NCBI GenBank assembly: GCA_015233115.1
Contig: JADFYJ010000010.1
Location: forward strand, 5,083-69,082
From: Candidatus Omnitrophota bacterium
GTDB taxonomy: Bacteria > Omnitrophota > Gorgyraeia > Zapsychrales > Zapsychraceae
DNA length: 64,000 nucleotides
Direction: 5' to 3'
Shown here: piece after piece, positions 9,153-64,000 of the stretch
How the letters are laid out: every line of letters starts with the position of its first letter
Numbering within the stretch: position 1 is the first letter of the stretch
Translations under genes and position numbers: made by a program
Notes under the pieces: model-generated
The model's input: only the letters and a program-made list of their open reading frames with translations
Told to the model about the DNA's origin: nothing
The model's database searches: none

Positions 9153-9157
9153 AAAGG

Positions 9158-11439: not shown

Positions 11440-11451
11440 TTAACTCCTTAT

Positions 11452-27228: not shown

Positions 27229-27526
27229 TTTTACCTCCTTCACCCATTCCGCAGGCAGCACCAGAAACTGTGGTTGTTTCAACCGGCCCGTCGTTGGTTG
27301 TGCTAAGAGTTGCCGCATTTTGTTGCTCAGATCGACGAGCTGCCGCTGCTTCTCTTTGCTCTGTGGTCACGCGTTTCATTCGGCGTTGCATGATGGCTTG
27401 TGCATCATGACTTTTCAACGGCGGCTGAGGCGTTTGTTCCTGCGCCCGAACCTGAGCAACGCCTGCCCAAAGAGCAGTAGCACTCAGAAGCACACTTCCC
27501 ATGATAATAAGTTTATTCTTGTTCAT
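27221..27526 (-). CDS. Small (101 aa) secreted protein of unknown function encoded immediately upstream of the MCO gene, overlapping its start by 8 nt.
   Basis: AAGGAGG RBS 5 nt before the ATG at 27526. Signal peptide MNKNKLIIMGSVLLSATALWAGVAQVRA, a Q/R/A-rich middle and a C-terminal ...SGAACGMGEGG. Confidence 0.45.
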   Translation of the reverse strand: MNKNKLIIMGSVLLSATALWAGVAQVRAQEQTPQPPLKSHDAQAIMQRRMKRVTTEQREAAAARRSEQQNAATLSTTNDGPVETTTVSGAACGMGEGGKNE

Positions 27527-38900: not shown

Positions 38901-41543
38901 TTTCGACTTGTGTAATGCGTCTAAAAAGGAAATAAGCAGAGGAGGAAAAAATATCATTTCAAATACGACACACGTCCAATGCCAAGGCGAAGGAATAATC
39001 GTCCAACTCATCAGCAAAAGGGCTATTAACGCAAATGGCACTAGACTACGCCTTAAATTATCAAAAATTTTCCATTGCGACAAAAATGATAAAGTATTTT
39101 TCTGCTTGTGCCCGTCAGATGACGGAACTTTGGACCACAACCAGCCTAATAATTGCCAATCTCCGCGGATCCAACGGTGCCGACGCCTAACATCTGTACT
39201 GTAACGGAAAAGATTTTCCTCGTACAATTCGACGTTACTCAACAGTCCGGAACGGGCATAACATCCTTCCCAAAGGTCATGGCTCAAAATCTTACCTTCA
39301 GGAAACCGTCCTTTGCACGCCCTTTCAAAAATATCCAAATCATAAATCCCTTTGCCGATAAATGAACCTTCCCCAAACAGATCCTGGTAAACATCCGAAA
39401 CCGTACGGGTATAAGGATCTATCCCCGGCTCACCTGCGTATAACCTCGCGTAAAAGGACCGATTCGCTCCTGCCAGGCTGGTACTCACCCGCGGCTGAAG
39501 TATTCCGTAGCCTTCGCAGACACATTGTTTCTGCTCGTCATAACGGGCGCGGTTTAAAGGGTGCGCCATGGTTTCTACCAGCTGACGAGCACAATCACGG
39601 GGTAATTGCGTATCTGTATCCAAGGTAATGATATATTTAACATTTTTCAATACCGCCAAATCACCTACGATGAGTAAAAATTTTTCCTGGGAGCCTCCGC
39701 GCAGCAGGCCATTTAAATCCGCTAATTTCCCGCGTTTACGTTCATATCCCATCCAAATGCCTTCACAAGGATTCCAGCTCCGTGGCCGGTGGAACAGAAA
39801 AAAAATATCAGGCCTGCCTTTTTTATATTTACTGTTAAGCTCTACAATTTTTTCCTGGGTTAATCGTAGAAGCGCATCGTCATCAGGCATAGTTTCTTGA
39901 GGCGCGTCCTGAAAGTCAGTTAATAATCCAAAATGTAATTGTTCATCCTGATTAGCCAAAAACCTCACTTCCAAGGCTTCGATAAGCCGCTCTATGTTCT
40001 GTGAACTTGTGAGCATGGTGGGCACAACTATTAAGGTAAGAAATTCCGACGGAATTCCTTTCGAAAAATCCATACGCGGCAATACCTGCGGCTTGACCAT
40101 TGACATGGCCATGTAGTTGACTAGCTCTAAGGCCAATTGACTCATGGCGACAATTAAAAAAACGCCAAAAGCCGCAGCTTTCCATGCCATAACATTCATG
40201 CCATAGAGATGGATCCAAAGGACACCCATCCCCCAAAATGTTAACACGGCAACAGCCCCGAGATACAGCAACAAGGCAAATCGTTGCGCTAATTTATATG
40301 CTTTTTCTATGATTGAAAACTGGTTCCGTACAGCTTGTTCAAGTTGTGACAATCCTTTATCGATTAAATAAAAACCGACGTGAGCGGTCCGGTCACTGAC
40401 TCCGTTTTTCCCAGCCGCTTCACTTGCTAATTGAACCGCTTTTTGCGCCACCTCACTTTCAAAAATTCCGCTCCTTTTCGCTATGTTCTCAACCACATGA
40501 CGGTAGCGGTCACGAGTAGCAAAATCCATCTGAGCATAAAATCCGGCAGGATCTTTGAGTAAAAACTTTTCGACAATACTCATTGTCTCCACAAATTCAC
40601 GCCAATCCATCGCCGACAACAAACGAAGACTTCCGATGCTATTACTGATAGACACCTGATTAGCCGCTTGTTGTTGATTTTCTAAATTAACCAAATGCTC
40701 AATGGTTAATCCCGACTCTGCCAGCCACTGATTAATCCAGGTCAACGGTAAGGCCAAGGATGGACTATGCCCCTGTAAACGGCGGGTCAGCTCAGCCACA
40801 AAAGAGCTCGACATGGGGGGGGTTGACCGTGCCATGTCCGCGACGATTAAAACTAAAGTTTTAGGTTCTCTCGCGGCAACTTCCGCCATTTGATCCGCCC
40901 AAAAATCAGCCAAATTTTGATCCATTCTTCCCACCGTGATACGAGCAGCCACCCGCCGTAGATTTTCAATCAAGGCCAGCCGCAGCATAATAGGAATGGC
41001 CCACAACTCGCCCAAATTTAACAGGGTGACTTGCTGATAAGCCTTTATAAAATTATTCAAAATTTCCAGATCTATCCGTCCATCACCATGAGCAACCATT
41101 TCTAAAGCAATGTCATACACCCTCGGCAGGCCCTGCGAAGGACCATTCATTAATAGAGGCAATTCCCGATGATAACTTTTGGGTAAATGCCGCTTAGCCG
41201 TACGAACCTGCTCTTCGATCAAATAAAAATTATCCAGCAGCCATTCACCTGCCGGCGTACCTAAACGCTTGGCCTTAACCGCCTCAGTCAGCAAGGCATG
41301 AGTTTCCCCCAGTACCATTTCGTTTTCTGTCAGCCTGGTCAAAAGCAATAGTGAAGAACGTTCCGTCGTTAATTTATGCAACCTGGCCAGCGTTTTGCCA
41401 TATTGTTTCATCTGTTCACTGCTGAACAATTCTGAGCGCAGGGGAGGCTCTTCGCGCATATGTTTGGGGAGCAAAATTTTACCGCGCAAACGCCTTAATA
41501 AATGAGAAAAAAATATTTTGATATCTGTTAATCTTATTTTCAT
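32946..41543 (-). CDS. cgs: Cyclic beta-1,2-glucan synthase (Cgs/NdvB/ChvB-like), 2865 aa: N-terminal polytopic membrane region, GT84-type glycosyltransferase domain, second TM region, and a C-terminal GH94-like (alpha/alpha)6 glucan-phosphorylase domain.
   Basis: The length is almost identical to Brucella/Agrobacterium Cgs/ChvB (about 2830-2870 aa). Domain order is TM, then GT with DxD, then TM, then a six-hairpin glycosidase/phosphorylase. This very large single ORF has no repeats. Its start is 4 nt past the stop of the downstream radical SAM gene. Confidence 0.8.
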   Translation of the reverse strand: MKIRLTDIKIFFSHLLRRLRGKILLPKHMREEPPLRSELFSSEQMKQYGKTLARLHKLTTERSSLLLLTRLTENEMVLGETHALLTEAVKAKRLGTPAGEWLLDNFYLIEEQVRTAKRHLPKSYHRELPLLMNGPSQGLPRVYDIALEMVAHGDGRIDLEILNNFIKAYQQVTLLNLGELWAIPIMLRLALIENLRRVAARITVGRMDQNLADFWADQMAEVAAREPKTLVLIVADMARSTPPMSSSFVAELTRRLQGHSPSLALPLTWINQWLAESGLTIEHLVNLENQQQAANQVSISNSIGSLRLLSAMDWREFVETMSIVEKFLLKDPAGFYAQMDFATRDRYRHVVENIAKRSGIFESEVAQKAVQLASEAAGKNGVSDRTAHVGFYLIDKGLSQLEQAVRNQFSIIEKAYKLAQRFALLLYLGAVAVLTFWGMGVLWIHLYGMNVMAWKAAAFGVFLIVAMSQLALELVNYMAMSMVKPQVLPRMDFSKGIPSEFLTLIVVPTMLTSSQNIERLIEALEVRFLANQDEQLHFGLLTDFQDAPQETMPDDDALLRLTQEKIVELNSKYKKGRPDIFFLFHRPRSWNPCEGIWMGYERKRGKLADLNGLLRGGSQEKFLLIVGDLAVLKNVKYIITLDTDTQLPRDCARQLVETMAHPLNRARYDEQKQCVCEGYGILQPRVSTSLAGANRSFYARLYAGEPGIDPYTRTVSDVYQDLFGEGSFIGKGIYDLDIFERACKGRFPEGKILSHDLWEGCYARSGLLSNVELYEENLFRYSTDVRRRHRWIRGDWQLLGWLWSKVPSSDGHKQKNTLSFLSQWKIFDNLRRSLVPFALIALLLMSWTIIPSPWHWTCVVFEMIFFPPLLISFLDALHKSKDVFWKQHLKTVFRAAAGRLAQRAFTVACLPYEAFFTLDAIVRTVVRMLITHKRFLEWNLYADTDGDSNDLIRSFLLMWIAPVTAVSVFIYLAGSAPHTLMFAGPVLLLWAVSPACVWWLSRLMPRREVKLSANQLFFLRKLSRKIWDFFETFVGQEDHWLPPDNYQETRMIKISHRTSPTNIGLALLANLSAYDFGIMTAQRLLERTENTFRSMAGLKRFRGHFFNWYDTQSLQPLLPNYISTVDSGNLAGFLLTLRPGLLALCDDKILGERWLESLKDTFLVLVDSIGDMNLFSTHQLEKDLESADEFKPATLEQVRLWLEAFGQHAEEFHTKISLSAEAEAIEWTQKLVQQCRHILDDLIFLVPKNYSGITGIPTLRELTKVEGEISTRALKRISDIERLVRQAGDFAQMEYDFLYDVKRKLLSIGYYSEERKLDSGFYDLLASEARLCYFTAIAQGQVPSESWFALGRLLTTSGGKPTLLSWSGSMFEYLMPLVVMPTYENTLLGQTYQAAVGRQIEYGKQFGVAWGISESGYNAIDANLNYQYRAFGVPGLGFKRGLTEDLVIAPYASLLALMVTPEPACLNLQRLACEGMMGQYGLYEAVDYTPSRRVRGRSSTILRSFLAHHQGMSLLALAYVLLDHPMQKRFRADPLFQANMLLLQERIPKSIPFYIHVNELSNIRALAAETQSPVRILKSPHTQVPEVQLLSNGRYHVMVTNAGGGYSRWKDMAVTRWREDTTCDNWGVFCYIRDIASGKFWSTAYQPTHKQPENYEVIFSQGRAEFRRRDYGLETHVEIVVSPEDDIELRRVRITNRSRGRRVIEVTSYSEVVLAPDMADALHPMFSNLFVQTEIIKSKQAILCSRRPRSVTEQEPWMFHLMSVHDAEIQKVSYETDRMQFIGRGYNLAEPYAMTQSHDLSGSQGSVLDPVTVIRGQMSLEPEQTVIINMVYGMGETRDKALSLIEKYHDWRIADRVFELSWTHSQVVLRQINATETDAQLFGHLAGFIIYAHASLRADPAVLIQNRRGQSGLWGSAISGDLPMVILQIGDLANVEIVRQMVQAHAYWRLKGLAVDLVIWNEALSGYRQLLQEQIMGLISATVQSQIAHNSGEIFVRPAEQISDEERILFQSVARAIISDRRGTLANQIYRHNFSEFPVEQFIPVKTFRPAIAPSLGETRHDLILFNGLGGFTPDGREYVICLSSDQVTPAPWVNVLANAHFGTIISENGLAYTWSENAHEFRLSPWNNDPVNDLTGEAFYLRDEETGQVWSPAPQPVHSRHPYLIRHGFGYSVFEHDEGGLHSELWVYVALESPVKFSVLKIRNISGRPRRLSATGYVEWVLGDLRSKTVMHVHTEVDPINGAIYARNFYNSEFSDIIAFFSTNDMGRTICADRAEFLGRNGSIHKPDALLRAHLSGRTGSALDPCAAIQVPFELADGEEREIVFTLGAGHNVEQVKNLVRNFCGSSGAQEALDAVNKYWTHTIGAVQVETPDSSLNVLANGWLIYQTLACRLWGRSGYYQSGGAFGFRDQLQDVMALNHCEPRLMREHLLLCASHQFLEGDVQHWWHPPSGRGVRTHCSDDYLWLVYATCHYVLSIGDTGVLDELVPFLRGRMVTVEEDSYYDLPKQSSEKVSLYEHCQRAIIKSLSIGQHGLPLMGSCDWNDGMNCVGQQGKGESVWLGFFLYDVLTQFIKMAQLRDDSAFVEICRAQLIQLKQNIEKNGWDGEWYRRAYFDDGALLGSAGNSECQIDSIAQSWSVLSGAADPDRGRKAMTSLNQRLVHRDTQIIQLLDPPFDKSGMNPGYIKGYVPGVRENGGQYTHAAIWAAMAFARLGDSRMAWELLDMINPVNHGKSLEEINIYKVEPYVVAADVYAVAPHVGRGGWTWYTGSAGWMYRLLLEFLLGLRLNVNQLSIEPCLPPEWKTFKIHYRYRDTLYHIEVSQILLGSGLAGVLVDGHLQENKMIELIDDHQDHRVEVRMIAENSQ

Positions 41544-52634: not shown

Positions 52635-52688
52635 AAATAGTGACAGGCACCAATTTTTTAATAACAAAATTGGTGCCTGTCACTATTT
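52635..52688 (-). terminator. Long-stem (about 23 bp) perfect hairpin immediately after the hypB stop, followed by a U-rich tract on the minus strand. Probable operon terminator.
   Basis: AAATAGTGACAGGCACCAATTTT-loop-AAAATTGGTGCCTGTCACTATTT, then ATTTATTTGATTTGTTTT on the minus-strand transcript. Confidence 0.6.
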
Positions 52689-53361
52689 ATTTAAAACATT
52701 CCGCAATCTTATGAACTAAAACACAATCTTGGACAAAATCAATCCATGAAGCAAAGCCCTCTCCCGAACAACTATCAACAGTAATGACTTCTCCTTTTTT
52801 ATTCAATTGTTTAAACGCGGCAAGAGCTATCGCTAAATTAAAATTTGTATGCTCAATCAGTTTTAATTTGGTGATAACTAATATCTCTGCTTCTGAAAAA
52901 AGCAAAGGATATTTCTCAACCTTGTCATCTCCTTCTGTGACGCTTAACACCGCGATCTTTCCATCCTCACCAATATCAAATTCTGCGGGACAGACCAGAT
53001 TGCCGATGTTTTCCACAAAAATCAATTCCGGGTTAACATCATTGATCAATTCTTTTAAAGCGGTATTAACCAAATGCGCGTCTAAATGACAGGCGTTACC
53101 CGTATTGATCTGATATGCCGCCACTCCCATTTTTTCAATCCGCGCCGCGTCTTTCGTAGTCGCGATATCTCCTTCGATGACCGCCATTTTAATTGTTTTA
53201 CCTAAAAGCGCGATCGTCTGTTCCAGCAATGTCGTCTTACCTGCGCCGGGAGAACCAATAATATTGAGCATGGTGATGCCGTGTTTTCTTAGCAATAACC
53301 GGTTTTCTTCTGCCCAGGCGTCGTTCGCGCTTAATAATTTATCCATCACATTAATTTTCAT
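52687..53361 (-). CDS. hypB: Hydrogenase nickel-incorporation GTPase HypB.
   Basis: GSPGAGKTT P-loop and the CxxC...C metal site of HypB. Context next to hypA. Confidence 0.9.
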   Translation of the reverse strand: MKINVMDKLLSANDAWAEENRLLLRKHGITMLNIIGSPGAGKTTLLEQTIALLGKTIKMAVIEGDIATTKDAARIEKMGVAAYQINTGNACHLDAHLVNTALKELINDVNPELIFVENIGNLVCPAEFDIGEDGKIAVLSVTEGDDKVEKYPLLFSEAEILVITKLKLIEHTNFNLAIALAAFKQLNKKGEVITVDSCSGEGFASWIDFVQDCVLVHKIAECFK

Positions 53362-53701
53362 CTTCTACCTCCAGTTTATGAATGTAGGGAGCACGCCGAG
53401 CTTCGACCACTGACCGGCACGAATGGCAAATCGGACATAAGCCCTCGATGGAGTCGTGATCGTCGAACTCAAGCGCGCATTGAGAACAAAAATATTTACT
53501 GATAACCCGCCGCACAGAGACTTTCGCCTGATTCAAGCACTGATCCGAAAGATGACTAAGAACAAACTCTAAATTGTCCGCGCTTACTGAATTGTACGGA
53601 CCACAGATGATCTCGATCTCCCTGACCCGGTTAAATCGATGAAAAAGTTTTAATTCCTTAACCTGCTGAACGATTCCTTCTACAAAAGCCAACTCGTGCA
53701 T
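53351..53701 (-). CDS. hypA: Hydrogenase nickel-insertion protein HypA.
   Basis: MHELAFVEGIV N-terminus (Ni site MHE) and the CSQC...CPICHS zinc motif. Confidence 0.85.
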   Translation of the reverse strand: MHELAFVEGIVQQVKELKLFHRFNRVREIEIICGPYNSVSADNLEFVLSHLSDQCLNQAKVSVRRVISKYFCSQCALEFDDHDSIEGLCPICHSCRSVVEARRAPYIHKLEVEDEN

Positions 53702-53711
53702 GATTCCTCCT

Positions 53712-54473
53712 TTACAAATTGAAAACTTTAATTATAATCCCACAAAAAAAGATAACTAACCCCGCGGTCGCATGTGAAAAGACGGCAATACCCTTAGCGT
53801 GTTTCTCAACCTTAAAGGAAACCGCTTTCAATCCAGACAAAGACAAAAAAACCATAACCTGCATAGTGATGACGGTTACCACGCTAAACGCAGCAGCCAC
53901 CATAAACACCGCTTGCCAATTCGATTTTAAAGCAGGATACATAATGAGAGGAATCAACGGTTCACAAGGGCCAAAGAAAAAAATTATAAAGAGGATCCAC
54001 GGAGTCAAACTAGCTTGCCCTGCTTCTGCCTCGTGCATATGCAAATGATCATGATGATGATTGTGAACGTGAAAATGTTCTTTCCCCTGATCATGGACAT
54101 GCTCATGCCCATGCTCTTGGCTCCGGATCCTTTTGATGGCGAACCAAACAAAATAGGTCAAACCGAAAGCAATCAAAAACCACGTTGTGATTTCCCCGCG
54201 GACTGATTCAATGAATTTCAGTCTAACCATGGTTATGCCTGCCGTTATGCCGATAAATCCCAGCATAACGGATGACGCGACATGCCCGATCCCGCAGATC
54301 AGCGTGATGACAAATGTTTTTCTTTTATTCCAATGCCGGGCCTGAGCTAAGGCGGCAAAAGGAATATAATGATCCGGCCCCAAAAGAGTATGCATAAAGC
54401 CTACGGTTAAAGCTGTCAATGTCAAAATTCCCATACCAGGATCCATAGTCTTTTCTCCTATTTTTTTATTCAA
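53712..54473 (-). CDS. Polytopic nickel/cobalt transporter (NicO/HupE-UreJ-like) with a His-rich cytoplasmic loop.
   Basis: GFMHTLLGPDHY motif (HPxxGxDH-like). Central loop HGHEHVHDQGKEHFHVHNHHHDHLHMH. Embedded between tatC and hypA. Confidence 0.6.
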   Translation of the reverse strand: MNKKIGEKTMDPGMGILTLTALTVGFMHTLLGPDHYIPFAALAQARHWNKRKTFVITLICGIGHVASSVMLGFIGITAGITMVRLKFIESVRGEITTWFLIAFGLTYFVWFAIKRIRSQEHGHEHVHDQGKEHFHVHNHHHDHLHMHEAEAGQASLTPWILFIIFFFGPCEPLIPLIMYPALKSNWQAVFMVAAAFSVVTVITMQVMVFLSLSGLKAVSFKVEKHAKGIAVFSHATAGLVIFFCGIIIKVFNL

Positions 54474-55215
54474 CTAACGGTTCTTGCCCGATCATTCTTT
54501 GGGCCCGTTGATAAATCACCTGAGAAACAATGATCGATACAACATATAAAAACAAAAGAGGCACCGCCATACAAAATTGACTAAAAATATCTGGACTGGG
54601 AGTCAATACACCCGCGGCAATAAAAATAAGCACCACGGCATACCGCCATTTATTCACCAAGACTGCTGGGGTGATCAGCCCGATCTGTGTCAAAAAAGCC
54701 ATAACAATAGGGAGTTGAAACACCGCCCCAAACGCGAGACACATTGACGCCACAAAAGAAACATACGAACTGATCGTAAGGGTTGGCGTCATAAAATCAT
54801 GACCAAATGAAAGCAGAAATTTAATCCCTGCCGTGATCACAAAAGTAAAACCAAAATATACGCCGGTAACAAACAACAGGAAAGATGCCGGCATGATGAT
54901 ATAAACATACTTGCGCTCACGCGGCGCCAACCCCGCCGCGATGAACTGCCATATCTCAAAGATGACATAAGGGGAAGACAAAAATAATCCAGCCCAAAAT
55001 GCCACTTTTAAGTAAGTCATAAAAGCTTCTGATGGATCAATGAATATCAAATGACCGACTGGCTTAGCAATGACCCGCAAAATATTATCCGTGTACATAT
55101 ACGCGCCTACAGTCATGACCAAAACCACCAAGCTGGCCCGAATCACCCTTTGTCTGAGTTCATCGATATGTTCCAGAATCGAAAGGTGCCGGTTGTTTAT
55201 TTTCATATATTTCAC
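54466..55215 (-). CDS. tatC: Twin-arginine translocase subunit TatC.
   Basis: Six TM helices with conserved TatC motifs (HLxELRxR-like N-terminus, PSPDIFSQ). Confidence 0.9.
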   Translation of the reverse strand: MKYMKINNRHLSILEHIDELRQRVIRASLVVLVMTVGAYMYTDNILRVIAKPVGHLIFIDPSEAFMTYLKVAFWAGLFLSSPYVIFEIWQFIAAGLAPRERKYVYIIMPASFLLFVTGVYFGFTFVITAGIKFLLSFGHDFMTPTLTISSYVSFVASMCLAFGAVFQLPIVMAFLTQIGLITPAVLVNKWRYAVVLIFIAAGVLTPSPDIFSQFCMAVPLLFLYVVSIIVSQVIYQRAQRMIGQEPLVE

Positions 55216-55225
55216 CCTGCCGTTC

Positions 55226-55456
55226 TTATGAACTTTTTTTAGAATTCAATTCCAACGTTTTACCATTTGTATCGACGGGTTTAGTATCCATAGTCATTTC
55301 CGCGTCAATGGTTTCCTTGATTTCACTAGTCGCTTTTTTAAATTCCCGCATGGACTTCCCCAGTGTGCGCGCCAATTCCGGTAAATTTTTTGAACCAAAC
55401 AACAGTAAAATAATAAACAAAATTACCATTAATTCACCCATGCCTAATCCAAACAT
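55226..55456 (-). CDS. tatA: Twin-arginine translocase TatA/E-family protein (copy 1).
   Basis: MFGLGMGELMVILFIILLLFG...F-K amphipathic helix. GGAGG RBS. Confidence 0.85.
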   Translation of the reverse strand: MFGLGMGELMVILFIILLLFGSKNLPELARTLGKSMREFKKATSEIKETIDAEMTMDTKPVDTNGKTLELNSKKSS

Positions 55457-55526
55457 ACAGCCTCCTTTTTAAAGTAAAAAGTTAAAATTAAAAAGTGAAA
55501 GTAAAGCAAAACCAAAAACGTAAAAA

Positions 55527-55694
55527 TTATTTTTTTGATTCGGCCAGATTCTTTTCTTCTGTATCCCGGCCTGCTTTTTTGAATTCTCTGATGGACTCTC
55601 CTAACGACCGGGCTAAATCCGGAAGCCGGCGCGCGCCAAACAACACCAAAATAATCATCAAAATCACTAGTAATTCGCCCATACCTAAATTCAT
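55527..55694 (-). CDS. tatA: Twin-arginine translocase TatA/B-family protein (copy 2). The start is MNLGMGELL at 55694, with a GGAGG RBS.
   Basis: [37 protein letters not shown]. The track ORF begins upstream at 55730, but the RBS supports 55694. Confidence 0.8.
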
Positions 55695-55744
55695 AAAACC
55701 TCCATTTTTTAAAAACCACCCAGGGTCCACCGCGTCAGTGGACT

Positions 55745-56194
55745 TTAAGCCGCCGACGCGGTGATTAACTCTATTACTATTTCAACAACCTTTGGAACCA
55801 TCACCGCGACTTCGGGGGTTAGGTCCAATGACCACTCAATTCGATAAGGTTCAATTCCGATTACTGTAACCGGCAACTCTGTCGTTCGACCGGTCAAAGC
55901 TAATACGTGTTGCAAATTAAACCCATGCAAAGAACCCATAAACTCTTTCTCTGCACACTCATCGAGAGAAAAAGAATATATAGTGCCAGGCTTAGCTCCC
56001 CCTTTACAAGCATCTATGACAATCATTTGGTCTGCCTCTTCAATCTGCGGCAACACATCAAGGACCGCCGTGCCTGCATCCACAATGCAGACATTTTCGT
56101 CCTGGAGGAGTTCTGCGAGGACATGCGCCGCATGAACACCAACCCCTTCATCAGCTAATAAAAGATTACCTAAGCCCAGCACTAAAGTTTTCAC
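55745..56194 (-). CDS. [NiFe] hydrogenase maturation endopeptidase (HyaD/HybD/HoxM family).
   Basis: [18 protein letters not shown] motif and size. Confidence 0.85.
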
Positions 56195-56226
56195 TCTTTT
56201 CGCCTTTCAAAACTATTGCTTCAGGT

Positions 56227-57660
56227 TTAACAAGTTACTGCGGGCACTTCCAATACCATAGGTTCCTCTTTGGGCCGCATCACATGAACCGCGCATGATA
56301 GGCAAGGATCAAAAGAATGAATCACCCTCAGCACTTCAATCGGCTGTGTCGGATCCATAACTGGCGTGCCAACCAAAGCTTGTTCAATTGGACCACGAAC
56401 ATTTTTGTCATCCTGCGGTGAAGCATTCCAACAAGTGGGAGTAATCACCTGATAATGGGCAATTGTCCCACCGGCAATTTTCACCCAATGGCCCAAAGCG
56501 CCCCGCGGAGCCTCAGTCAAGCCAATACCTTCTCCATCAGAAAGCAGATTATTCTGCTCATACGATGGCGCACCCATGGTCAGCTGATCCAGCCACGTTA
56601 ACATCGCTTCTGCCACTTTTAACGTTTCCTGCGCCCGAGCTAAATGCCGATCCATAACAGAAACGCCATTTTGATAGTCTCCGGTCACCCACATCCGAGC
56701 CAGAGCTCCGGTTTCAAAAGGTTTACCCTGATGACGCGGCGCTTTCAACCAGGAATATCCGTTTGTTTTTGGATATACCGGTTGGGTATCTCCGCTACGC
56801 GGCGTCAAATTATTAGTCGCATCCGCATACCACGAGTGAGTGACTGACTCCGTAATCTGATTTAAAAACACATTATTAGGATTCCCTTTTGTCGCGTTTT
56901 CAACACACCCGCGATGGAACAATTTATCCGTCCCGGAAGCATTCAAATCAAATACGCCATATGCCAATAAATTTTTCCATCCGCCTCCAATGTTGAAATA
57001 ATCGGAATAGATCTGGCTCAAGGCAATAGAATCCGGGATATAAATATTTCTGATAAAATCCAAGAGTAAATTCAACTGAGTTCTGAATTTGGTAATCATC
57101 GCCGCATTGGGCACCACAGTATGCCCGCCAGAAATAATCGCCGCAGTAATCGGCATGCGACCGCTCAATAACGCCCCCATCTCATGCGCTCTGCGTCGGG
57201 CTGCAACAGCTTGCACAAAATGATCCATGATCGGGTAAGTTGGATTTGATGCGGGAAAACGCATATCCACATTATAAGCCGGGGTCCATGGGCTGGTTTG
57301 CGGGCCAGCGACATAATCCAGTAAAGACAGCAAATAAAAATGCAAAATATGCGATTGGACATAATTTGAGCCCAAGGTTAAGTTGCGTAAAATACGGCCA
57401 TTATCCGGCACGCTCCGTCCTGACGCGTTATCCAGAGCCATGGACGCGGCGAGCCCATGAGAAATCGGACACACTCCGCATATGCGCTGAGTAAGAATAG
57501 GCGCGTCCCACGGATGGCGGCCGGCGAGTATCTTTTCAAAACCGCGAAACAGCGTTCCAGTACATTTCGCGTCGGTAACCCGGTTTTGATCAATCGTTAC
57601 TTCCACTTTCAAGTGACCTTCAATCCGGGTCACCGGATCCATAATTGTAATAGTTGCCAT
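56227..57660 (-). CDS. [NiFe] hydrogenase large (catalytic) subunit.
   Basis: N-terminal L1 motif RIEGH...RICGVCPISH. C-terminal DPCLSCAVH followed by an 18-aa extension for proteolytic maturation. Confidence 0.9.
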   Translation of the reverse strand: MATITIMDPVTRIEGHLKVEVTIDQNRVTDAKCTGTLFRGFEKILAGRHPWDAPILTQRICGVCPISHGLAASMALDNASGRSVPDNGRILRNLTLGSNYVQSHILHFYLLSLLDYVAGPQTSPWTPAYNVDMRFPASNPTYPIMDHFVQAVAARRRAHEMGALLSGRMPITAAIISGGHTVVPNAAMITKFRTQLNLLLDFIRNIYIPDSIALSQIYSDYFNIGGGWKNLLAYGVFDLNASGTDKLFHRGCVENATKGNPNNVFLNQITESVTHSWYADATNNLTPRSGDTQPVYPKTNGYSWLKAPRHQGKPFETGALARMWVTGDYQNGVSVMDRHLARAQETLKVAEAMLTWLDQLTMGAPSYEQNNLLSDGEGIGLTEAPRGALGHWVKIAGGTIAHYQVITPTCWNASPQDDKNVRGPIEQALVGTPVMDPTQPIEVLRVIHSFDPCLSCAVHVMRPKEEPMVLEVPAVTC

Positions 57661-57688
57661 TGTTTATCCTTTCCTATTAACATGACTG

Positions 57689-59671
57689 TTAATTATCTGA
57701 CGTGTTCGACATATTTATTCTCACCACACTTTTTTCGACTATTTCCAGTCCGGATACAGCTCTCACTCTTCCCGGCTGAGAACTAACACCAGCCGCTCTG
57801 ACTGACCAAGAACCGTCAGAAGAAATCGTCGTTGTGGTGTATATTTTTCCGCTTGTCGCATTACTGACAGTCACTCTCGCTCTAGCCTTACCCTGACCGG
57901 ACACTGTTAAAGTTCTGTTATGATAATCCCATACCGCTCTGGTTATCGTCAGAACCGTAGATGGCGGCGGTGGAGGTGGCGGCAGCGGCACATTACTGAC
58001 AGACACCGTCAGGCTTTGTCCTTGCGACGAAGCTATTATTGTCGACGGTATCGATGCTGGATTTGTCAGCGTGAACATCCATTGGCCATTCGCCGTAACG
58101 GGGGTTTGACCTAGCGTTATGCCGCTGGAATTTTTGATGACAACAACTGCCGCTGCCACACCTGTCCCTTGAACATTTAATTGATTAGACCCCGCAATCC
58201 ATTGCGCGTTGCTAATGGCAAACACGACCGGAGGCGGCGGGGGTGGAGGCACATTGCTAACCTGGACCGTCAGACTTTGCCCTTGGGACGTTGCCGTCAC
58301 TGTCGCCGGTATCGTAGCCGGATTTGTCAGCGTGTACGTCCACTGACCATTCGCCGCAATCGTGGTTTGCCCTAACGTGGTGCCGCCAGCATTTTGGATG
58401 ACCACAACTGCCGCTGCCGCACCTGTCCCTTGTACATATAATTGATTAGAAGCCGCTATCCATTGCGCGTTGCTGATGGTAAACACCAGTGGCGGCGGCA
58501 TTGCCGGAACATTACTGACGGGTGCAAATAAAACATCCGCATTTAATTTAGCCACAATCGAAACGGGCACAGCCGCCGGGTTATTCACCGTCAACGTCCA
58601 GGCTCCGGATGAATTCGGAACAGACTGCCCGATCAGCGCACCTAAATATTCTTCAACAATGACGGTTGAAGCAGGTGTCCCTTTCCCTGAAACAGTTAAC
58701 TGTTTTGATGTATTATTCCAGGCGGCAGATACGACCTCAAATAGAGCCGGACCAGTCCCTGTCACGGCAGTCAGACTATACATAGGAGAAAATCCGTCAG
58801 GAAATCGGCTGTCCGTACATCCCATACACTGCGAATTAGCGCCAATGCACCAATTCGTCCCATTGTTCCATAAACGTTTAGGACAATCTGCTTGAGTCGA
58901 AGGGCCTTTACAACCAAGATTTCTCATACACAAAGAATCTACCCCGAAGGTCGTGGCTTTACTGCGATCTTGCCGCGGACAATTTTCATGGACATTATTG
59001 TTCTCCCCGCCATACAGGGCAGATGGTCTTCCTGAACTATCCAATGCCGGTATAATACCAGCAATCAGTTGCGCAATGGTCCAGATAATCCAATCCGGAT
59101 GGGCAGGACAGCCAGCGATATTGATGGTTGGTTTGCCGATGGCAGCACTTAAGCTTTGAATTTGTGTCGGATTCGGTGCAGCGGCAGATATACCACCAAA
59201 ACTAGCGCAAGTCCCAATCGCTAAATTAGCGATGGAATTGGCTGACAACTGACGTACAGCGTCTAACGCGGTTATTTCCTGCCCGTTTTCTGTCCACAAA
59301 AGACAGGTATTACCATTAAATGCCGTCGGGATTCCGCCTTCGACAGCCAAAACGTAAGGATTTTTGGTCGCATTACGGAGATTGGCCACCGCTAAATCAC
59401 CAGCCGCGCCCATAAGATTGGGATGAAATGCCAGATCAATATGATTGATCAAAAGATCTGCGACATCTAAAGGTTCAGTAGCGGATATACGATTCGCCAA
59501 TGATACGGTACAACCGGTGCAGGTCGCTGTGCTCAGCCAAATGACTGTGGGTATCCCCGGCCCGCTGGCGGCAAACGCCTTTTGCAGCTGGCCGATCGCC
59601 GAGGCGTCCAACCCCAATAATGCTGCTGAAGAAACACAATACTTTAAAAATTCTCTCCGACTTATTCGCAT
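57689..59671 (-). CDS. [NiFe] hydrogenase small subunit with a Tat signal peptide and an unusual C-terminal extension of about 300 aa made of tandem Ig-like repeats separated by polyproline linkers.
   Basis: MRISRREFLKYCVSSAALLGL (twin-Arg). Fe-S cluster cysteine motifs (ATCTGCTVS, GTCASFGG, GCPAHPD, CxxC-rich distal region). Three repeats with VSNVPPPPPPP linkers. No hydrophobic C-terminal anchor. Confidence 0.85.
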   Translation of the reverse strand: MRISRREFLKYCVSSAALLGLDASAIGQLQKAFAASGPGIPTVIWLSTATCTGCTVSLANRISATEPLDVADLLINHIDLAFHPNLMGAAGDLAVANLRNATKNPYVLAVEGGIPTAFNGNTCLLWTENGQEITALDAVRQLSANSIANLAIGTCASFGGISAAAPNPTQIQSLSAAIGKPTINIAGCPAHPDWIIWTIAQLIAGIIPALDSSGRPSALYGGENNNVHENCPRQDRSKATTFGVDSLCMRNLGCKGPSTQADCPKRLWNNGTNWCIGANSQCMGCTDSRFPDGFSPMYSLTAVTGTGPALFEVVSAAWNNTSKQLTVSGKGTPASTVIVEEYLGALIGQSVPNSSGAWTLTVNNPAAVPVSIVAKLNADVLFAPVSNVPAMPPPLVFTISNAQWIAASNQLYVQGTGAAAAVVVIQNAGGTTLGQTTIAANGQWTYTLTNPATIPATVTATSQGQSLTVQVSNVPPPPPPPVVFAISNAQWIAGSNQLNVQGTGVAAAVVVIKNSSGITLGQTPVTANGQWMFTLTNPASIPSTIIASSQGQSLTVSVSNVPLPPPPPPPSTVLTITRAVWDYHNRTLTVSGQGKARARVTVSNATSGKIYTTTTISSDGSWSVRAAGVSSQPGRVRAVSGLEIVEKSVVRINMSNTSDN

Positions 59672-59691: not shown

Positions 59692-61179
59692 TTAAAAATA
59701 CAAATCCCTTTCTCCCCGGGAAATTCGTTCATAATATCGCATAAAATGCGGATACGAATTCGGCGCCGTATTCCGAATCTCATTAATCTCTTTTTCTAAA
59801 AGTCCTTTAGCCAGCTCTTGAGTTTTAGCACTGCCAAAATCATCAACCCATTCGCGAAAGGTCAGCACAGCATTGAGTTTACAAAATTTCCCTTCTTTGC
59901 CAGAACGCAAAAGATCCATGATACATTTTCCCGTTCTGTTGCAACGGTAGCCAGCTGTACAAAAAGACGTGATATGTCCGAGACGGGTAAATTCCTGGAT
60001 CACTTCATCCAGACTACGGGTATCCCCCAACATAAATTGCTGACGGCGGCCTTCCTGGGTCATACTGCCGTCGCTGTAAGCGCCAAGGCCAATCTTGGTG
60101 GACGCATCCGTCTGCGTAATACCTAATTCAATTGATGCGCGTTTGAGTTCAGGGGTTTCGCGGCTAGTAATGATCATGCCGGCATGAGGCACCGCCAGTC
60201 TTAATACCATCATTATTTTTTTAAATTCTTCGTCGGAAACTTTGTGTTTTGACTGATGGGTAAACGGAACATTTTCCGCCGGTTCAAGCCGCGGAAAAGA
60301 AATAGTATGCGCGCCAATGCCGAATTTTTTTTCCAATTCGATATTATGCGCAACCAAACCTAATACTTCGTATCTCCAGTCATACAGCCCAAAAAGTGCG
60401 CCAATACCCACATCATCAATTCCAGCTTCGAGTGCCCGGTGCATAGCATAAAGCCGCCACAGATAATTCGCTTTAATGGTGTTTTTCGGGTGGAGGGATT
60501 GGTACGTCGGATGGTGATATGTTTCTTGAAACACTTGATAGGTCCCAATACCAGCATGGCCTAAAATTTTCAAGTCATCCACACAAAGGGGCGCGGCATT
60601 GACATTAACCCGCCGGATCTGTCCATACCCTACTCTGGCTTTAACGCGCACATCGTATATTGTACGGATAGTATCGGCCATATAATGCACATCATTGTCC
60701 GGATGTTCGCCGTAAACCACGATCAGCCGTTTATGCCCTATCTGACCCGCCAGTACTTTGGTTTCCTCCGTTACCTCATCCAGCGTTAAGGTTTTACGCT
60801 GAGTTTTAATATTCGAACAGCGAAAACCGCAATAGACACAATCATTAACGCAGGCATTACTCAAATAAAGCGGCGCGAACGTGACAATACGGTTATCGTA
60901 AACTTTCTTTTTTACCGCCAGAGCGGTTTCTTTCATTTTTTCAAGCAAGTACGAATCTGTCACCCGCATCAGCAGAGCTGTTTCTTCCAACGTAAGAGTC
61001 TCAACATCCAAAGATTTTTGTAGGATGTCTAGTATTATTCTTTTATCAGGAATTTTTGTGAAGCAAAGAGCGGCATCCATCCGTTCCTCATCAATAAAAG
61101 ATTTTCCGCGAGTCAGATACTTTTCAATTTCATCTTCATTAATCCGGGTTTGAGCCCAAGATTTTGTCATGATATCCAT
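59692..61179 (-). CDS. HydG-like radical SAM enzyme (tyrosine-lyase/ThiH-HydG family) with a divergent C-terminal Cys-rich auxiliary-cluster domain.
   Basis: APLYLSNACVNDCVYCGF (CxxxCxxC, HydG/ThiH type). The 495-aa length includes a C-terminal HydG-like domain, FCTAGYRCNRTGKC...FCKLNAVLTF. For comparison, the canonical HydG motif is CTACYR...CHPNA. Confidence 0.7.
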   Translation of the reverse strand: MDIMTKSWAQTRINEDEIEKYLTRGKSFIDEERMDAALCFTKIPDKRIILDILQKSLDVETLTLEETALLMRVTDSYLLEKMKETALAVKKKVYDNRIVTFAPLYLSNACVNDCVYCGFRCSNIKTQRKTLTLDEVTEETKVLAGQIGHKRLIVVYGEHPDNDVHYMADTIRTIYDVRVKARVGYGQIRRVNVNAAPLCVDDLKILGHAGIGTYQVFQETYHHPTYQSLHPKNTIKANYLWRLYAMHRALEAGIDDVGIGALFGLYDWRYEVLGLVAHNIELEKKFGIGAHTISFPRLEPAENVPFTHQSKHKVSDEEFKKIMMVLRLAVPHAGMIITSRETPELKRASIELGITQTDASTKIGLGAYSDGSMTQEGRRQQFMLGDTRSLDEVIQEFTRLGHITSFCTAGYRCNRTGKCIMDLLRSGKEGKFCKLNAVLTFREWVDDFGSAKTQELAKGLLEKEINEIRNTAPNSYPHFMRYYERISRGERDLYF

Positions 61180-62525
61180 TAAAGTGCTCCTTCCGTTATA
61201 GACTGTTCCATCAGAAAAATTTTTTCACTCACTCCCAAATCGGTAGGCGCTCGTCCCAAAGAGCGGAGTAAGGCGAGAATATCCTGAATTTGACTGTTGA
61301 TCGATTCAGAGACATGAGCCCGGTTTGGATAAAGCGAATATAAAGCGCGATATTTAGCCGGCGTCACATTCAACATGACCGAATTAGCTCCGCAAAGCAG
61401 GCCTTCTTTGCGGGCATCAGGATGGAGAGTTTCAAATGCGGTCGTAACTAAAATTTTAGCATTTTCCGGATCAAGGATCCTTGCGATTGCCAAAACCTTA
61501 AATATTTTATCCTTATCCCACGGTAGATACCCGGCAATCGGCGTATTAGGGTGAGGCAAAAATGGTCCAAACGAAAACATCTCAGCGTTTAACTCTTTTG
61601 CCAGAAAAATATCATTGAAAACATCATCGGGTGTTTGACCTGGGATTCCAACTAAGGCTCCGGTCATAATCAAATACCCTAGTTCCCCTGCCCTCTTCAG
61701 GTGGGCGATCCGGGTGTCCAAATTACGGCCGGGATGAAGACGGCTATATACCAATGGATTCGAGGTTTCAAAACGCATCAACATAGCCCGGGCGCCCGCA
61801 TCGTATACGGTTTTCAATCCATCAAAACCAATTTCCCCAAAACTAATCGCGATCAGCACTCCAGCTTGTTTTTTTATTTCTCTTATAATTTTGGCTATTT
61901 TATCCGGGGAGAAGAAAGAGTCTTCTCCGCTCTGCAAAACCAAAGCTTTAAATCCGTAATCTTTGATGGCGGAAAGGGCAGTATCAACAATTTCCTGCTC
62001 ACTCATCCGATAGCGCTTGATTTGTTGATTATGGGAAGAAATACCGCAATAAAAACAATTTTGGGAACAAATATTGGAGATTTCAATAATACCGTGAACA
62101 CAACATGAATTTTTTAAATATTTTTGCCGCAAAAAATTTGCGCATTTATAGATGAAAGCATTAGCCGCTTTTTCTTCAACAGAAAAAAGATAATGCAGGT
62201 CTGAACGCGATAAAGAACTTCGCTCTAAAGCTCGGTCTAAAATACGGGAAAGTTTAGTATCATGATATCCTTCCTCAAAATAAAGTTTGGAAAGGCGCAC
62301 ATCCACTTCCTGCAATTCAAAAAAGGTTTCTTTCCATAAAGCCAGTACTTCCAAAGCCTGGGCAGGAGCAACCTTTTCAATAACATAGCCGCCTTGCGCG
62401 TAAATATAATCCCCGATGTTCAAATTAATCAAATCATTAATGGCCCTCTTTTCTTCTCCAAAGTAATCGACAACAACTGTCTTATCATTGATCGCCTTTA
62501 CCTGACCAGGAATCGCATAACACAT
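61179..62525 (-). CDS. Fusion protein: an N-terminal HypC/HupF-like hydrogenase-maturation scaffold domain (MCYAIPGQV...IGDYIYAQGGYVIEKV) joined to a HydE/BioB/PylB-type radical SAM domain.
   Basis: Residues 1-80 align by eye with HypC/HybG (MC-x-x-[IV]P at the N-terminus, GDYVLVHVGFAI-like core). Residues from about 140 onward carry CSQNCFYC (CxxxCxxC) and the biotin-synthase-like TIM-barrel pattern. The stop overlaps the HydG-like start by 1 nt. Confidence 0.65.
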   Translation of the reverse strand: MCYAIPGQVKAINDKTVVVDYFGEEKRAINDLINLNIGDYIYAQGGYVIEKVAPAQALEVLALWKETFFELQEVDVRLSKLYFEEGYHDTKLSRILDRALERSSLSRSDLHYLFSVEEKAANAFIYKCANFLRQKYLKNSCCVHGIIEISNICSQNCFYCGISSHNQQIKRYRMSEQEIVDTALSAIKDYGFKALVLQSGEDSFFSPDKIAKIIREIKKQAGVLIAISFGEIGFDGLKTVYDAGARAMLMRFETSNPLVYSRLHPGRNLDTRIAHLKRAGELGYLIMTGALVGIPGQTPDDVFNDIFLAKELNAEMFSFGPFLPHPNTPIAGYLPWDKDKIFKVLAIARILDPENAKILVTTAFETLHPDARKEGLLCGANSVMLNVTPAKYRALYSLYPNRAHVSESINSQIQDILALLRSLGRAPTDLGVSEKIFLMEQSITEGAL

Positions 62526-62674
62526 ATGCCCCCCCTTTAAACAGGATCTCGAAAAATTATGTCTGAATTTATCACAATGAAAATTAATTGAAGATTAAAT
62601 TAAAATTAAAATCCTTTAATCTTATGGAAATGGTAGAGATTGTTGCGACGGAAACAAATTAAATTAACGCAGAT

Positions 62675-64000
62675 TTATGCTAAGGGGAGAGTGACGGTAA
62701 AAATTGATCCTTTATCCGGTTCGCTCGCCACAGTGATGCTTCCATGATGAGCTTGAACAATTGACTGAGCAATATAAAGACCCAGCCCATAACCTGAAGA
62801 ACGAGAAGGATTTTTTCCTCGATAAAACCGATTAAATATTTTGTCCAGATCTTCTTTTTTAATTCCGACGCCTGAGTCCGTGATGGATACCGCAACTGTG
62901 CTTTTTTCTAAATGAACACCAATCAGTACACGGCCGTTTTCCGGTGAGAATTTTAACGCATTATCAATCAAATTAAAAAATACCCTTCTTAAATGAACCG
63001 CATCGCCTAAAACCAATATTTCCTGCGCAAGAACATCATAAGTCATATCAATATTTTTTTCTTTGGCGAAAAGCCGCATTTGTTCATAAATATCATTCAG
63101 AAAATTCGTTAAATCAATTTCCTGAAAAACTTTGCGGTCAGTGCGGTATTCAATTTTGGCCATCAAAAGAAGATCATCAATAATTTTATTAATCCGGTCC
63201 ACCTCTTCAATGGTTAACTGGATTACCCGTTTATATTCTTCGATATCCCGTTCTTTTCGTAACGTCAGCCCAGCTTCGCCTTTTATAATGGACAAAGGGG
63301 TCTTTAATTCATGCGCCACATGCGAACTGAATTCCGAAATATAAGTAAATGATTCTTCCAGACGCGTGATCATATCATTAAACGCGTCAGCCAGATATTT
63401 CATTTCCGCATCCATCTTATCCGTAGCCACACGCGCTTTAAGATTTTCTTGCGAAATACTACTCGCGGTCACCGCGATCTGCACTACTGGTTTTAAAACC
63501 AGAGCAATAAAAAATCTTCCTACGATGCCTGCGCCGACAAGTATGACAATAATACCGATAGCAAGATATTTCAGCTGATGTTGTAAAATATGCAATACTG
63601 GCCGCCGCGGGCTGACTACCTGCAAAATATAATACTGTCCTCCGGGAACATGAGCGAAAGGGACATTAATAATCCTTACATTGATATTGTCACTTTCAAT
63701 CGTAGCGCTTTCATAAAAAGGACCGTCTAACGCTTTTTTAATGCCTCGGCTTAATAGCGGCCGTAAATTAGGCGGAAGCGGCCGAGACGAAACAATAAGC
63801 TTTTCATTCGCATTATAAAAATTCACATAATCATCATTCAAACTGAATTTATTGGGGCTCTGCAGCCATTTGCTTTCAACTTCCGCGATTTTCGCTTCAG
63901 CCGAATGCCGCGGGCCTAACAGCATAGCCCTGCGCACGGCAAAAACCAAAGTCCCGGAATCACCGCCGAGAATCTGAACATAAGAACTAATCGTCGCTGA
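62675..64000 (-). CDS. Sensor histidine kinase (periplasmic sensor domain, TM helix, HAMP, HisKA, HATPase_c). The N-terminus runs off the window end.
   Basis: SHVAHELKTPLSII H-box and GYGLGL G2 box. The reading frame is open to coordinate 64000 (the track's 'M' at 63949 is a TTG). Confidence 0.75.
   Translation of the reverse strand, partial: SATISSYVQILGGDSGTLVFAVRRAMLLGPRHSAEAKIAEVESKWLQSPNKFSLNDDYVNFYNANEKLIVSSRPLPPNLRPLLSRGIKKALDGPFYESATIESDNINVRIINVPFAHVPGGQYYILQVVSPRRPVLHILQHQLKYLAIGIIVILVGAGIVGRFFIALVLKPVVQIAVTASSISQENLKARVATDKMDAEMKYLADAFNDMITRLEESFTYISEFSSHVAHELKTPLSIIKGEAGLTLRKERDIEEYKRVIQLTIEEVDRINKIIDDLLLMAKIEYRTDRKVFQEIDLTNFLNDIYEQMRLFAKEKNIDMTYDVLAQEILVLGDAVHLRRVFFNLIDNALKFSPENGRVLIGVHLEKSTVAVSITDSGVGIKKEDLDKIFNRFYRGKNPSRSSGYGLGLYIAQSIVQAHHGSITVASEPDKGSIFTVTLPLA

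Follow-up and report, generated by a model that had tools for sequence, protein, structure and literature searches.

Tat export and nickel supply genes within a predicted eleven-gene [NiFe] hydrogenase operon of an Omnitrophota bacterium

Why would the genes of a twin-arginine translocation (Tat) exporter sit inside a hydrogenase operon, and does such a position make the exporter a dedicated one? The question is raised by a stretch of 64,000 nucleotides from Candidatus Omnitrophota bacterium (GenBank assembly GCA_015233115.1, contig JADFYJ010000010.1, positions 5,083 to 69,082 of the forward strand; hereafter the window), in which two tatA genes and one tatC gene lie among the genes of a [NiFe] hydrogenase. 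Hyd-1 and Hyd-2 of Escherichia coli and the membrane-bound hydrogenase of Cupriavidus necator (Ralstonia) undergo hitch-hiker export via an unlinked, constitutive TatABC system that serves dozens of substrates. An earlier note on positions 52687-59671 of the window had described a self-contained Tat export and nickel supply set, unusual in its co-transcription with the hydrogenase and dedicated to it, and had taken this to suggest that the hydrogenase is the dominant or only Tat substrate of the organism. Here, we report that linkage of tat and hydrogenase genes is rare overall yet a recurrent trait of the Omnitrophota, and that the embedded tatC appears from sequence comparison to be the ordinary ortholog of its lineage. 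The explanation that we consider probable is that one 11-gene operon makes, nickel-loads and exports a periplasmic hydrogenase, and that it does so with an ordinary, vertically inherited tatC and tatA2 plus an extra short tatA, tatA1.

The minus strand carries, from 62525 to 52687, 11 co-oriented and tightly packed genes spanning ~9.8 kb. The region singled out in the earlier note corresponds to the last nine of them, the downstream two-thirds of the operon, and the two tatA genes, tatC, the His-rich membrane gene, hypA and hypB are indeed found on the minus strand between the structural genes and the terminator, at the positions it had given. Two further co-oriented genes (59692-61179 and 61179-62525) adjoin the small-subunit gene upstream, at a distance of 20 nt from it and with an overlap of 1 nt between themselves. 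Proteins were assigned with profiles and their curated cut-offs or gathering thresholds (PF00902, PF02416, TIGR00945, TIGR01411, TIGR01410 and others). The genes and boundary elements are as follows, with scores in bits and cut-offs after "vs".

61179..62525, minus strand: HypC-HydE fusion, 448 aa, operon gene 1 (PF01455, PF04055; NCBI MBF0479167.1)
59692..61179, minus strand: HydG-like homolog of the radical S-adenosylmethionine (SAM) tyrosine lyase, 495 aa (TIGR03955)
57689..59671, minus strand: [NiFe] small subunit, 660 aa (TIGR00391 210 vs 179.5)
56227..57660, minus strand: [NiFe] large subunit, 477 aa (PF00374 388)
55745..56194, minus strand: HyaD/HybD-type large-subunit maturation endopeptidase (PF01750 86; TIGR00072 133 vs 47)
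55527..55694, minus strand: tatA1, 55 aa, GTG start possible at 55730 (PF02416 71.7; TIGR01411 66.4 vs 53.9)
55226..55456, minus strand: tatA2, 76 aa (PF02416 71.5; TIGR01411 66.0 vs 53.9)
54466..55206, minus strand: tatC, 246 aa, GTG start possible at 55215 (PF00902 225; TIGR00945 188.2 vs 132.7)
53712..54446, minus strand: His-rich polytopic membrane protein, 244 aa, TTG alternative start at 54473 (NCBI MBF0479159.1)
53351..53701, minus strand: hypA (PF01155 56.1 vs 28.9)
52687..53361, minus strand: hypB (TIGR00073 259.7 vs 121.2)
52638..52685, both strands: intrinsic terminator with a perfect 20-bp stem, 8 G-C pairs, an 8-nt loop and T-runs
62556..62583, minus strand: promoter-like site TTTTCA-16 nt-CATAAT, 9/12 consensus matches

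With the best-supported start codons, intergenic distances across the operon range from -11 to +70 nt. As to the overlapping or abutting starts and stops reported earlier, hypA and hypB overlap by 11 nt and the His-rich gene ends 10 nt before hypA, whereas the 8-nt overlap of tatC with the His-rich gene exists only if the TTG start is used and is otherwise a 19-nt gap. Almost every preferred start is preceded by a Shine-Dalgarno-like GGAG/AGGA motif, tatC (ggcagg) being a weak exception. The preferred starts are Met13 for TatA1 (GGAGG before the ATG at 55694), Met4 for TatC and Met10 for the putative transporter, and the last two agree with the NCBI models MBF0479160.1 and MBF0479159.1. Upstream of the first gene, an AT-rich gap of 149 nt holds the promoter-like site (62583-62556), a weak candidate of a kind no commoner in the window than in shuffled sequence. 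At the other end, the terminator hairpin (52685-52638) comes straight after the hypB stop codon, and an Rfam scan of the window returned no RNA element, hence no Ni/Co riboswitch. The G+C content at third codon positions (GC3) of the operon genes (0.385-0.487) lies within the range of the other window genes (0.362-0.474) or ~0.01 above it, and since it is unremarkable it gives no signature of an island. From this context we infer that the region belongs to a single operon of 11 co-transcribed genes. With its T-runs on both strands the terminator could also act on any convergent transcript, and it shields the operon from the gene of a PAS histidine kinase, whose start lies 89 nt downstream of hypB.

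The tat genes themselves are canonical. TatC matches PF00902 over profile positions 1-208 of 208 and is identical to MBF0479160.1 from a Candidatus Omnitrophica metagenome-assembled genome (90.7-kb contig), and both TatA paralogs score ~66 bits on TIGR01411 (cut-off 53.9) and have the LFG (F-G) hinge. A TatB identity was rejected for either paralog, with TIGR01410 scores of 42.7 and 33.7 vs a cut-off of 56.5 and a hinge of F-G, not G-P. Their cargo is equally recognizable: the small subunit begins with a hydrogenase-type Tat signal peptide (approximately residues 1-34; 59570-59671) that runs from MRISRREFLKYCVSSAALLGL to KAFA, with the cut before AS, and in which the motif SRREFLK is followed by a hydrophobic stretch and by a cleavage site of the AxA type. 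A scan of all open reading frames (ORFs) of at least 70 residues on both strands of the window bore out the earlier statement that this is its only canonical twin-arginine signal, the other RR matches being internal parts of long ORFs, a spurious 76-residue ORF and a lipoprotein-type Sec signal. Extended to ~172 kb from other Omnitrophota loci, the scan picked out a single protein, the small subunit of locus L006; the small subunit of locus L008 has a TRREFLK signal, which was seen by eye only and not flagged by the scan. No further tatA or tatC was found in the window beyond the operon copies.

Whether this Tat system belongs to the hydrogenase or to the lineage can be read from its relatives. 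The close TatC matches that carry an organism name (44-60% identity) all come from Omnitrophota. The nearest relative on a long contig is P0003 (58-60% identity to the window TatC), to be compared with 52-57% for P0007 and 43% for P0102. The neighbourhoods of these and other Omnitrophota tatC genes are as follows.

L006 (TatC P0007): response regulator, kinase, carbamoyltransferase, small subunit (713 aa, Ig tail), large subunit, protease, tatA, tatA, tatC, hypF_C, hypC, hypD, hypE, hypA
L008/L009 (TatC P0102): small subunit, large subunit, protease, hypA, tatA (TatB-like G-P hinge), tatC, tatA, multihaem cytochrome; hypFCDE divergent
L004/L005 (TatC P0003): tatC and one tatA amid housekeeping genes
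L007 (TatC P0013): tatC amid housekeeping genes
L093 (TatC P0018): tatC and one tatA amid housekeeping genes
L094 (TatC P0037): tatC and one tatA amid housekeeping genes

L006 is the ortholog of the window locus (identities of 66% for the large subunit, 55% for TatC and 41% for the upstream kinase) and shares its order of small subunit, large subunit, protease, tatA, tatA and tatC, whereas L008/L009, with a large subunit 50% identical to that of the window, shows a variant order. The tat genes of all three linked lineages lie within the hydrogenase cluster and comprise two tatA-family genes (3/3 loci), a long one of 76-88 residues and a short one of 53-56 residues with the motif GESI[RK]EFK, the form to which the short paralog of the window and those of L006 and L008 belong. 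Four other Omnitrophota lineages have a tatC without hydrogenase linkage, next to a tatA in three of the four and never next to more than one, and the TatA2 of the window resembles in alignment this single TatA of the unlinked loci. Hydrogenase-linked and unlinked sequences interleave in a neighbour-joining tree of 40 TatCs (~240 columns, no support values), where the window TatC groups with the unlinked P0003 and not with the linked P0007 and P0102. Judged by these sequences, the embedded tatC is the ordinary ortholog of its lineage and forms no separate dedicated clade. The earlier idea of a dedicated Tat system is not borne out by these data, with a phylum-typical TatC, the interleaving of linked and unlinked sequences and a close relative, P0003, lying amid housekeeping genes. 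Four lineages keep tatC away from any hydrogenase gene, so that Tat probably serves more than the hydrogenase, which speaks against the suggestion of a dominant or only Tat substrate.

Beyond these relatives the linkage was absent from the loci compared. None of 80 metagenomic tatC loci (32-47% identity; 612 kb in total; 27 loci of at least 10 kb) had hydrogenase genes near tatC, a background rate since these loci represent distant TatCs and not close relatives; with the best match per query kept, no match pointed to a second tatA among them either. A GTDB scan with the large subunit returned three loci as its closest matches (59-62% identity; Acidobacteriota and Desulfobacterota, none from Omnitrophota), and these have the small subunit, the large subunit and the protease, without tat, hyp or hydEG genes. 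In a plasmid collection with annotated hydrogenase clusters, the best match was to the small-subunit, large-subunit and protease genes of Clostridium acetobutylicum pSOL1, which have no tat neighbours, and a literature search combining Omnitrophota, Tat and hydrogenase found no description of the arrangement and no bacterial case. The word "unusual" in the earlier note is therefore apt with respect to the metagenomic (0/80) and GTDB (0/3) loci and too strong with respect to the recurrence in L006, in L008/L009 and in the methanogens discussed below. Within the Omnitrophota the linkage is probably old.

Several neighbours of these loci deserve mention in their own right. A HAMP histidine kinase gene (62675-63949) lies directly upstream of the window operon, a position kept in L006 (1384-3539; 41% identity), where an OmpR-type response regulator gene precedes it; in the window, the regulator gene would lie past the end of the stretch. 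The kinase is a candidate for dedicated control of the hydrogenase operon. In L008 (7790-8895), tatC is flanked by a TatB-like paralog with a G-P hinge (77 residues) and a short TatA (56 residues), and the tat genes are followed by a small multihaem cytochrome of the Cytochrome_C554 family with a Sec-type signal (9025-9471), the likely redox partner of the L008 hydrogenase.

A published precedent exists in archaea. The MIC core, or MIC island, of corrosive methanogens (Methanococcus maripaludis OS7 and Mic1c10; Methanobacterium IM1) comprises the Tat-signal [NiFe] hydrogenase FohAB, its protease FohD, TatA, TatC and FohE; it is mobile between methanogens as an island or transposon, Tat being otherwise uncommon there, and the hydrophilic C-terminus of its small subunit has been proposed to position the enzyme outside the membrane (PMC6181927; PMC12667266). 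Both systems cluster a Tat-signal small subunit, a large subunit, a maturation protease, tatA and tatC, both have a non-standard C-terminal extension of the small subunit without a membrane helix, and both supply the exporter along with its cargo. They differ in that the MIC core is archaeal and mobile with a single tatA, whereas the window operon is bacterial, shows no sign of mobility, contains two tatA paralogs and has a TatC that is the native ortholog of its phylum. The gamma-carbonic-anhydrase-like FohE has no equivalent gene in the window operon, which in turn adds a transporter, hypA, hypB and the HypC-HydE/HydG pair to a core that includes no nickel transporter or hyp genes; the MIC tail bears N-glycosylation sequons where the window tail consists of four Ig (Big_6) domains. 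The window operon would thus work like a bacterial MIC core without being a member of that group, a likeness drawn from gene content and published descriptions.

What is exported is probably a stalked, soluble enzyme. The small subunit has an FeS core extending to about residue 300, followed by four immunoglobulin (Ig)-like Big_6 repeats (residues 301-660; 57692-58771) of ~85-90 residues each, which are joined by poly-proline linkers of up to PPPPPPP and recognized by PF17936 in four stretches (E=2e-22). This tail, which is devoid of a membrane helix, is shared with the small subunit of L006 (713 residues) and with the Acidobacteriota locus L001. The best solved relative of the core is the periplasmic [NiFeSe] small subunit 2wpn (218 bits). 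The large subunit displays an all-cysteine site, RICGVC ... DPCLSCAVH, followed by an 18-residue C-terminal extension, and scores 584.4 bits on the NiFeSe-type model NF033181, just short of the cut-off of 600. By these sequence features the enzyme would be a [NiFe] hydrogenase of group 1, located in the periplasm and akin to the [NiFeSe]/[NiFe] enzymes of Desulfovibrio. As in the group 1a/1b enzymes of Desulfovibrio and Desulfomicrobium (2wpn, 1cc1, 1h2a), the predicted product is a soluble periplasmic heterodimer without cytochrome b, and no membrane anchor of the cytochrome b type is encoded nearby. It departs from these systems by its all-cysteine active site without selenocysteine, by its 360-residue Ig-repeat tail, by the absence of a c-type cytochrome gene nearby and by the presence of tat, nickel and maturase genes in the operon.

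Nickel supply is suggested by the genes that follow tatC. The His-rich protein has ~6 predicted helices, the motif HTLLGPDH (HX5DH) in the first of them and a loop in which 15 of 31 residues are His. We take HX5DH in helix 1 to be a hallmark of the nickel permeases of the HupE/UreJ and UreH kinds, in which case the window protein shares it with them. The family comprises 4883 homologs (~236 residues), mostly assigned to PF13386 (DsbD_2, UreH-like), and most of the closest ones (48-62% identity) carry a precomputed match to that profile. The homologs P0002 and P0122, 63% identical to TatC and 62% to the transporter, each lie on a 2125-bp ENA contig, presumably one and the same, so that the adjacency of tatC and transporter appears to be conserved in the closest relative. 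Small polytopic secondary transporters of the HupE/UreJ, UreH and HoxN/NiCoT types are likewise encoded beside nickel-enzyme genes in hydrogenase and urease clusters, and UreH-family genes in particular are reported to adjoin such genes, [NiFe] hydrogenase included (PMC2667541). The next gene, hypA, encodes a protein with an MHE N-terminus and two CxxC pairs (CSQC...CPIC), whose match to PF01155 is clear while its TIGR00100 score (46.4 bits) lies under the equivalog cut-off of 88.1. HypB has a GSPGAGKT P-loop and no N-terminal His or CxxCGC stretch. Because its gene sits between tatC and hypA, nickel import is the best reading of the His-rich protein, which we thus describe as a putative Ni(II) permease, with metal and direction deduced from its motif, weak family membership and gene context.

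Put together, these elements would form a short production line. The His-rich HX5DH permease would bring Ni(II) into the cytoplasm (motif and gene context), and HypA and HypB would place it in the large subunit (homology). The HybD-type protease would then cut off the 18-residue extension after DPCLSCAVH, a step assigned by homology to an extension visible in the sequence. As in E. coli and Cupriavidus, the folded dimer would hitch-hike on the SRREFLK signal of the small subunit through TatA1/TatA2/TatC, and the enzyme would remain in the periplasm on its four-Ig stalk, with no cytochrome partner encoded nearby. The tat genes would have become lodged between the protease gene and the nickel/hyp genes in part of the phylum, and it is because they are lodged in the hydrogenase operon that exporter, nickel supply and bulky substrate would share one transcript; the benefit would be a coupling, Tat capacity and nickel supply rising upon hydrogenase induction. 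A functional split between TatA1 and TatA2 may be surmised from context. The E. coli and Cupriavidus systems share with the window an RRxFxK signal on the small subunit only, an operon-encoded protease of the HyaD/HybD/HoxM type (with processing before export in those systems) and HypA plus HypB for nickel insertion, whereas their operons also contain HyaE/HybE or HoxO/HoxQ chaperones and a cytochrome b or HybA/B, none of which occurs in the window.

Several points weigh against this explanation. The operon includes no Tat proofreading chaperone of the HyaE/HybE/HoxO type, and no ORF of the window contains the CxxCH motif of c-type cytochromes, so that no electron acceptor is encoded in the window. 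The search for tat genes covered 64 kb, and a second tat locus elsewhere in the genome is possible; the TatC tree, as said, rests on ~240 columns and carries no support values. The AT-rich gaps of 50 and 70 nt around tatA1 may hide a promoter missed by a simple scan. Finally, the nickel permease fits its family poorly: it reaches 19.3 bits on PF13386, under the threshold of 24.9; the names given to its family are inconsistent across sources (TauE/SafE, nickel/cobalt exporter, importer, RcnA, NicO, UreH-like); and one homolog adjoins a divergent Fur-family regulator and not a nickel enzyme, a neighbour that fits a metal transporter without indicating which metal.

These last points feed the alternative that the His-rich protein is no nickel importer but an RcnA/NicO-type exporter or buffer of Ni/Co (or another metal), or a TauE/SafE-like anion exporter, an alternative we hold to be somewhat unlikely. 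Its long His-rich loop recalls RcnA-type exporters, unlike HupE/UreJ, UreH and HoxN/NiCoT; homologs are annotated as nickel/cobalt exporter, RcnA or sulfite exporter TauE/SafE, and one also has a match to PF03824 (NicO); and whereas UreH-like relatives are assigned to PF13386, the window protein falls below that cut-off. The gene context argues the other way, since 19 nt separate the gene from tatC and 10 nt from hypA, its adjacency to tatC apparently extends to the relative represented by P0002 and P0122, and UreH-family genes are reported beside nickel-enzyme genes (PMC2667541). The "Ni transporter" of the earlier note is hence backed by motif and context and left short by a sub-threshold profile score in a family whose names cover importers and exporters alike.

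The most unusual part of the locus is the HypC-HydE/HydG pair that opens the operon. Residues 1-67 of the fusion are a HypC domain (PF01455, 51 bits; match to the HypC chain 2z1c) with the conserved MCYAIPG N-terminus, and the HydE part matches Thermotoga maritima HydE full-length (266 bits over residues 95-437), with 246.7 bits on TIGR03956 vs a cut-off of 254.6. The HydG-like protein scores 427.7 bits on TIGR03955 (cut-off 312) and 409 bits against the HydG structure 4wcx over its full length, and keeps the radical SAM motif CVNDCVYC (CX3CX2C). Its C-terminal motif reads CTAGYRCxRTGKC...C, with the spacing CTAGYRC-x5-C-x13-C (CX5CX5CX13C), in place of the canonical CTACYR / CX2CX22C, the second cysteine being changed to glycine; this variant (~59950-60060; residues 374-410) is invariant in four Omnitrophota sequences (window, L010, L011 and L012) and in P0361. 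A conserved histidine presumably occupies the dangler-iron ligand position of the HydG structure, going by our own residue count. The fusion is kept in 120/120 best homolog clusters, those with a named source being all Omnitrophota, and in all three other contexts examined (L010, L011 and L012) the pair closes a group-4 [NiFe] operon of the Mbh/Mrp type, directly after HycI-HypA. In the orthologous locus L006, the equivalent flanks hold the carbamoyltransferase, hypF_C, hypC, hypD and hypE in place of the pair, and no hypD, hypE or hypF was found in the 64-kb window.

Two relatives, P0364 and P0368, show still other variants of the C-terminal HydG motif. Among the HydG representatives, the canonical CTACYR motif is found in HypC-HydE-HydG triple fusions (P0366 and P0367; 881 and 906 residues), in the HydE-HydG fusion P0363 (803 residues) and in P0369 (861 residues), a fusion of HydG to an N-terminal GTPase domain, which by eye resembles HydF. 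The HypF of L006 is apparently split, with a 576-residue NodU/CmcH-type carbamoyltransferase (3641-5371) upstream of the structural genes and a 387-residue protein with only the C-terminal HypF domains (10768-11931) after tatC.

To our knowledge, the anaerobic source of the CO ligand of the [NiFe] site is unresolved. The sequences suggest that [FeFe]-type maturases feed the [NiFe] site here. In its full form this gives a self-sufficient line, in which the fusion and the variant HydG would replace HypD, HypE and HypF for the making of Fe(CN)2(CO), or of its CO, and TatA1 would be specialized for the hydrogenase; [FeFe]-type radical SAM chemistry would convert tyrosine into diatomic ligands and hand them to the fused HypC carrier. 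We put this forward as a tentative idea that is more apt to be wrong than right. The counter-argument is that the pair may mature [FeFe] hydrogenases, with hypDEF and hydF encoded elsewhere. Group A3 [FeFe] hydrogenases are encoded by many Omnitrophota (PMC10066038). A literature search on HypC-HydE/HydG in [NiFe] maturation found nothing relevant. If the pair does feed the [NiFe] site, the anaerobic origin of the CO ligand would become directly testable with a defined gene set.

Returning to the tat genes and the favoured single operon, we regard as unlikely that their adjacency to the hydrogenase genes comes without obligate co-transcription, a constitutive internal promoter driving tat (and perhaps transporter-hypAB) so that Tat serves all substrates independently. 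The two longest internal gaps, the AT-rich ones of 50 and 70 nt, do flank tatA1, and the persistence of Tat in unlinked lineages implies a wider role for it. On the coding strand between 56200 and 54400, which spans the tat segment, no consensus sigma-70-like promoter was found by the scan, in keeping with the earlier view of an undivided operon, although this absence is weak evidence because the promoter scan is not significant against shuffled sequences. No terminator-like hairpin lies between hybD and tatA1, and at the corresponding places in L006 and L008 the genes overlap or lie no more than 35 nt apart.

Still less probable in our estimation is a second, hydrogenase-dedicated Tat, with a housekeeping tatAC elsewhere in the genome and an operon copy, above all TatA1, specialized for a bulky cargo, the ~120-kDa pair of the large subunit and the small subunit with its Ig tail. 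It would account for the two tatA-family genes of the linked loci (3/3), as opposed to at most one in unlinked loci, and for the lack of second-tatA matches in the 80 metagenomic loci, where the best match per query was kept. It sits badly with a window TatC that groups with the unlinked P0003 and not with the linked P0007 and P0102, with a TatA2 that resembles the single TatA of unlinked loci, and with the absence of a second tat gene within 64 kb.

That hydrogenase and exporter were acquired together as a MIC-like mobile cassette is very improbable: FohAB, FohD and TatAC do travel together on islands or transposons (PMC6181927, PMC12667266), and the Acidobacteriota and Desulfobacterota relatives (59-62%) are nearly as close as the Omnitrophota ortholog (66%), which hints at inter-phylum exchange of structural genes, but these non-Omnitrophota relatives have no tat genes, the TatC is phylum-typical, GC3 is unremarkable, the ORFs scanned revealed neither repeats nor an integrase or transposase at the flanks of the operon, and the synteny of the upstream histidine kinase with that of L006 (41% identity) speaks for vertical inheritance of the entire locus. 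Horizontal acquisition of an island was rejected, on GC and GC3 within or marginally above the window range and on the synteny of the flanking kinase.

The window contains other unusual ORFs. A secreted metallophosphoesterase fused to a cupredoxin/COX2-like domain (7844-9034) and a secreted protein of 1426 residues (23038-27318), which joins fn3 repeats to a Golvesin C-terminal domain and weakly matches multicopper oxidase, both have signals of the Sec type and not of the Tat type. The window also contains an ORF of 2865 residues (32946-41543).

In this locus the embedding of the tat genes plausibly couples exporter and nickel supply to their substrate. The arrangement forms a bacterial counterpart, apparently inherited vertically, of the published MIC core of archaea, and it recurs over Omnitrophota TatC lineages down to 43% identity. 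As a compact cassette of 11 genes for structural subunits, protease, exporter, metal supply and maturases, it could be moved to a heterologous host for the production of a periplasmic [NiFe] hydrogenase. The Omnitrophota thereby lend themselves to asking how the transcription of a general exporter comes to be tied to a single bulky substrate, and whether the pore is fitted to such a substrate by a second TatA paralog.

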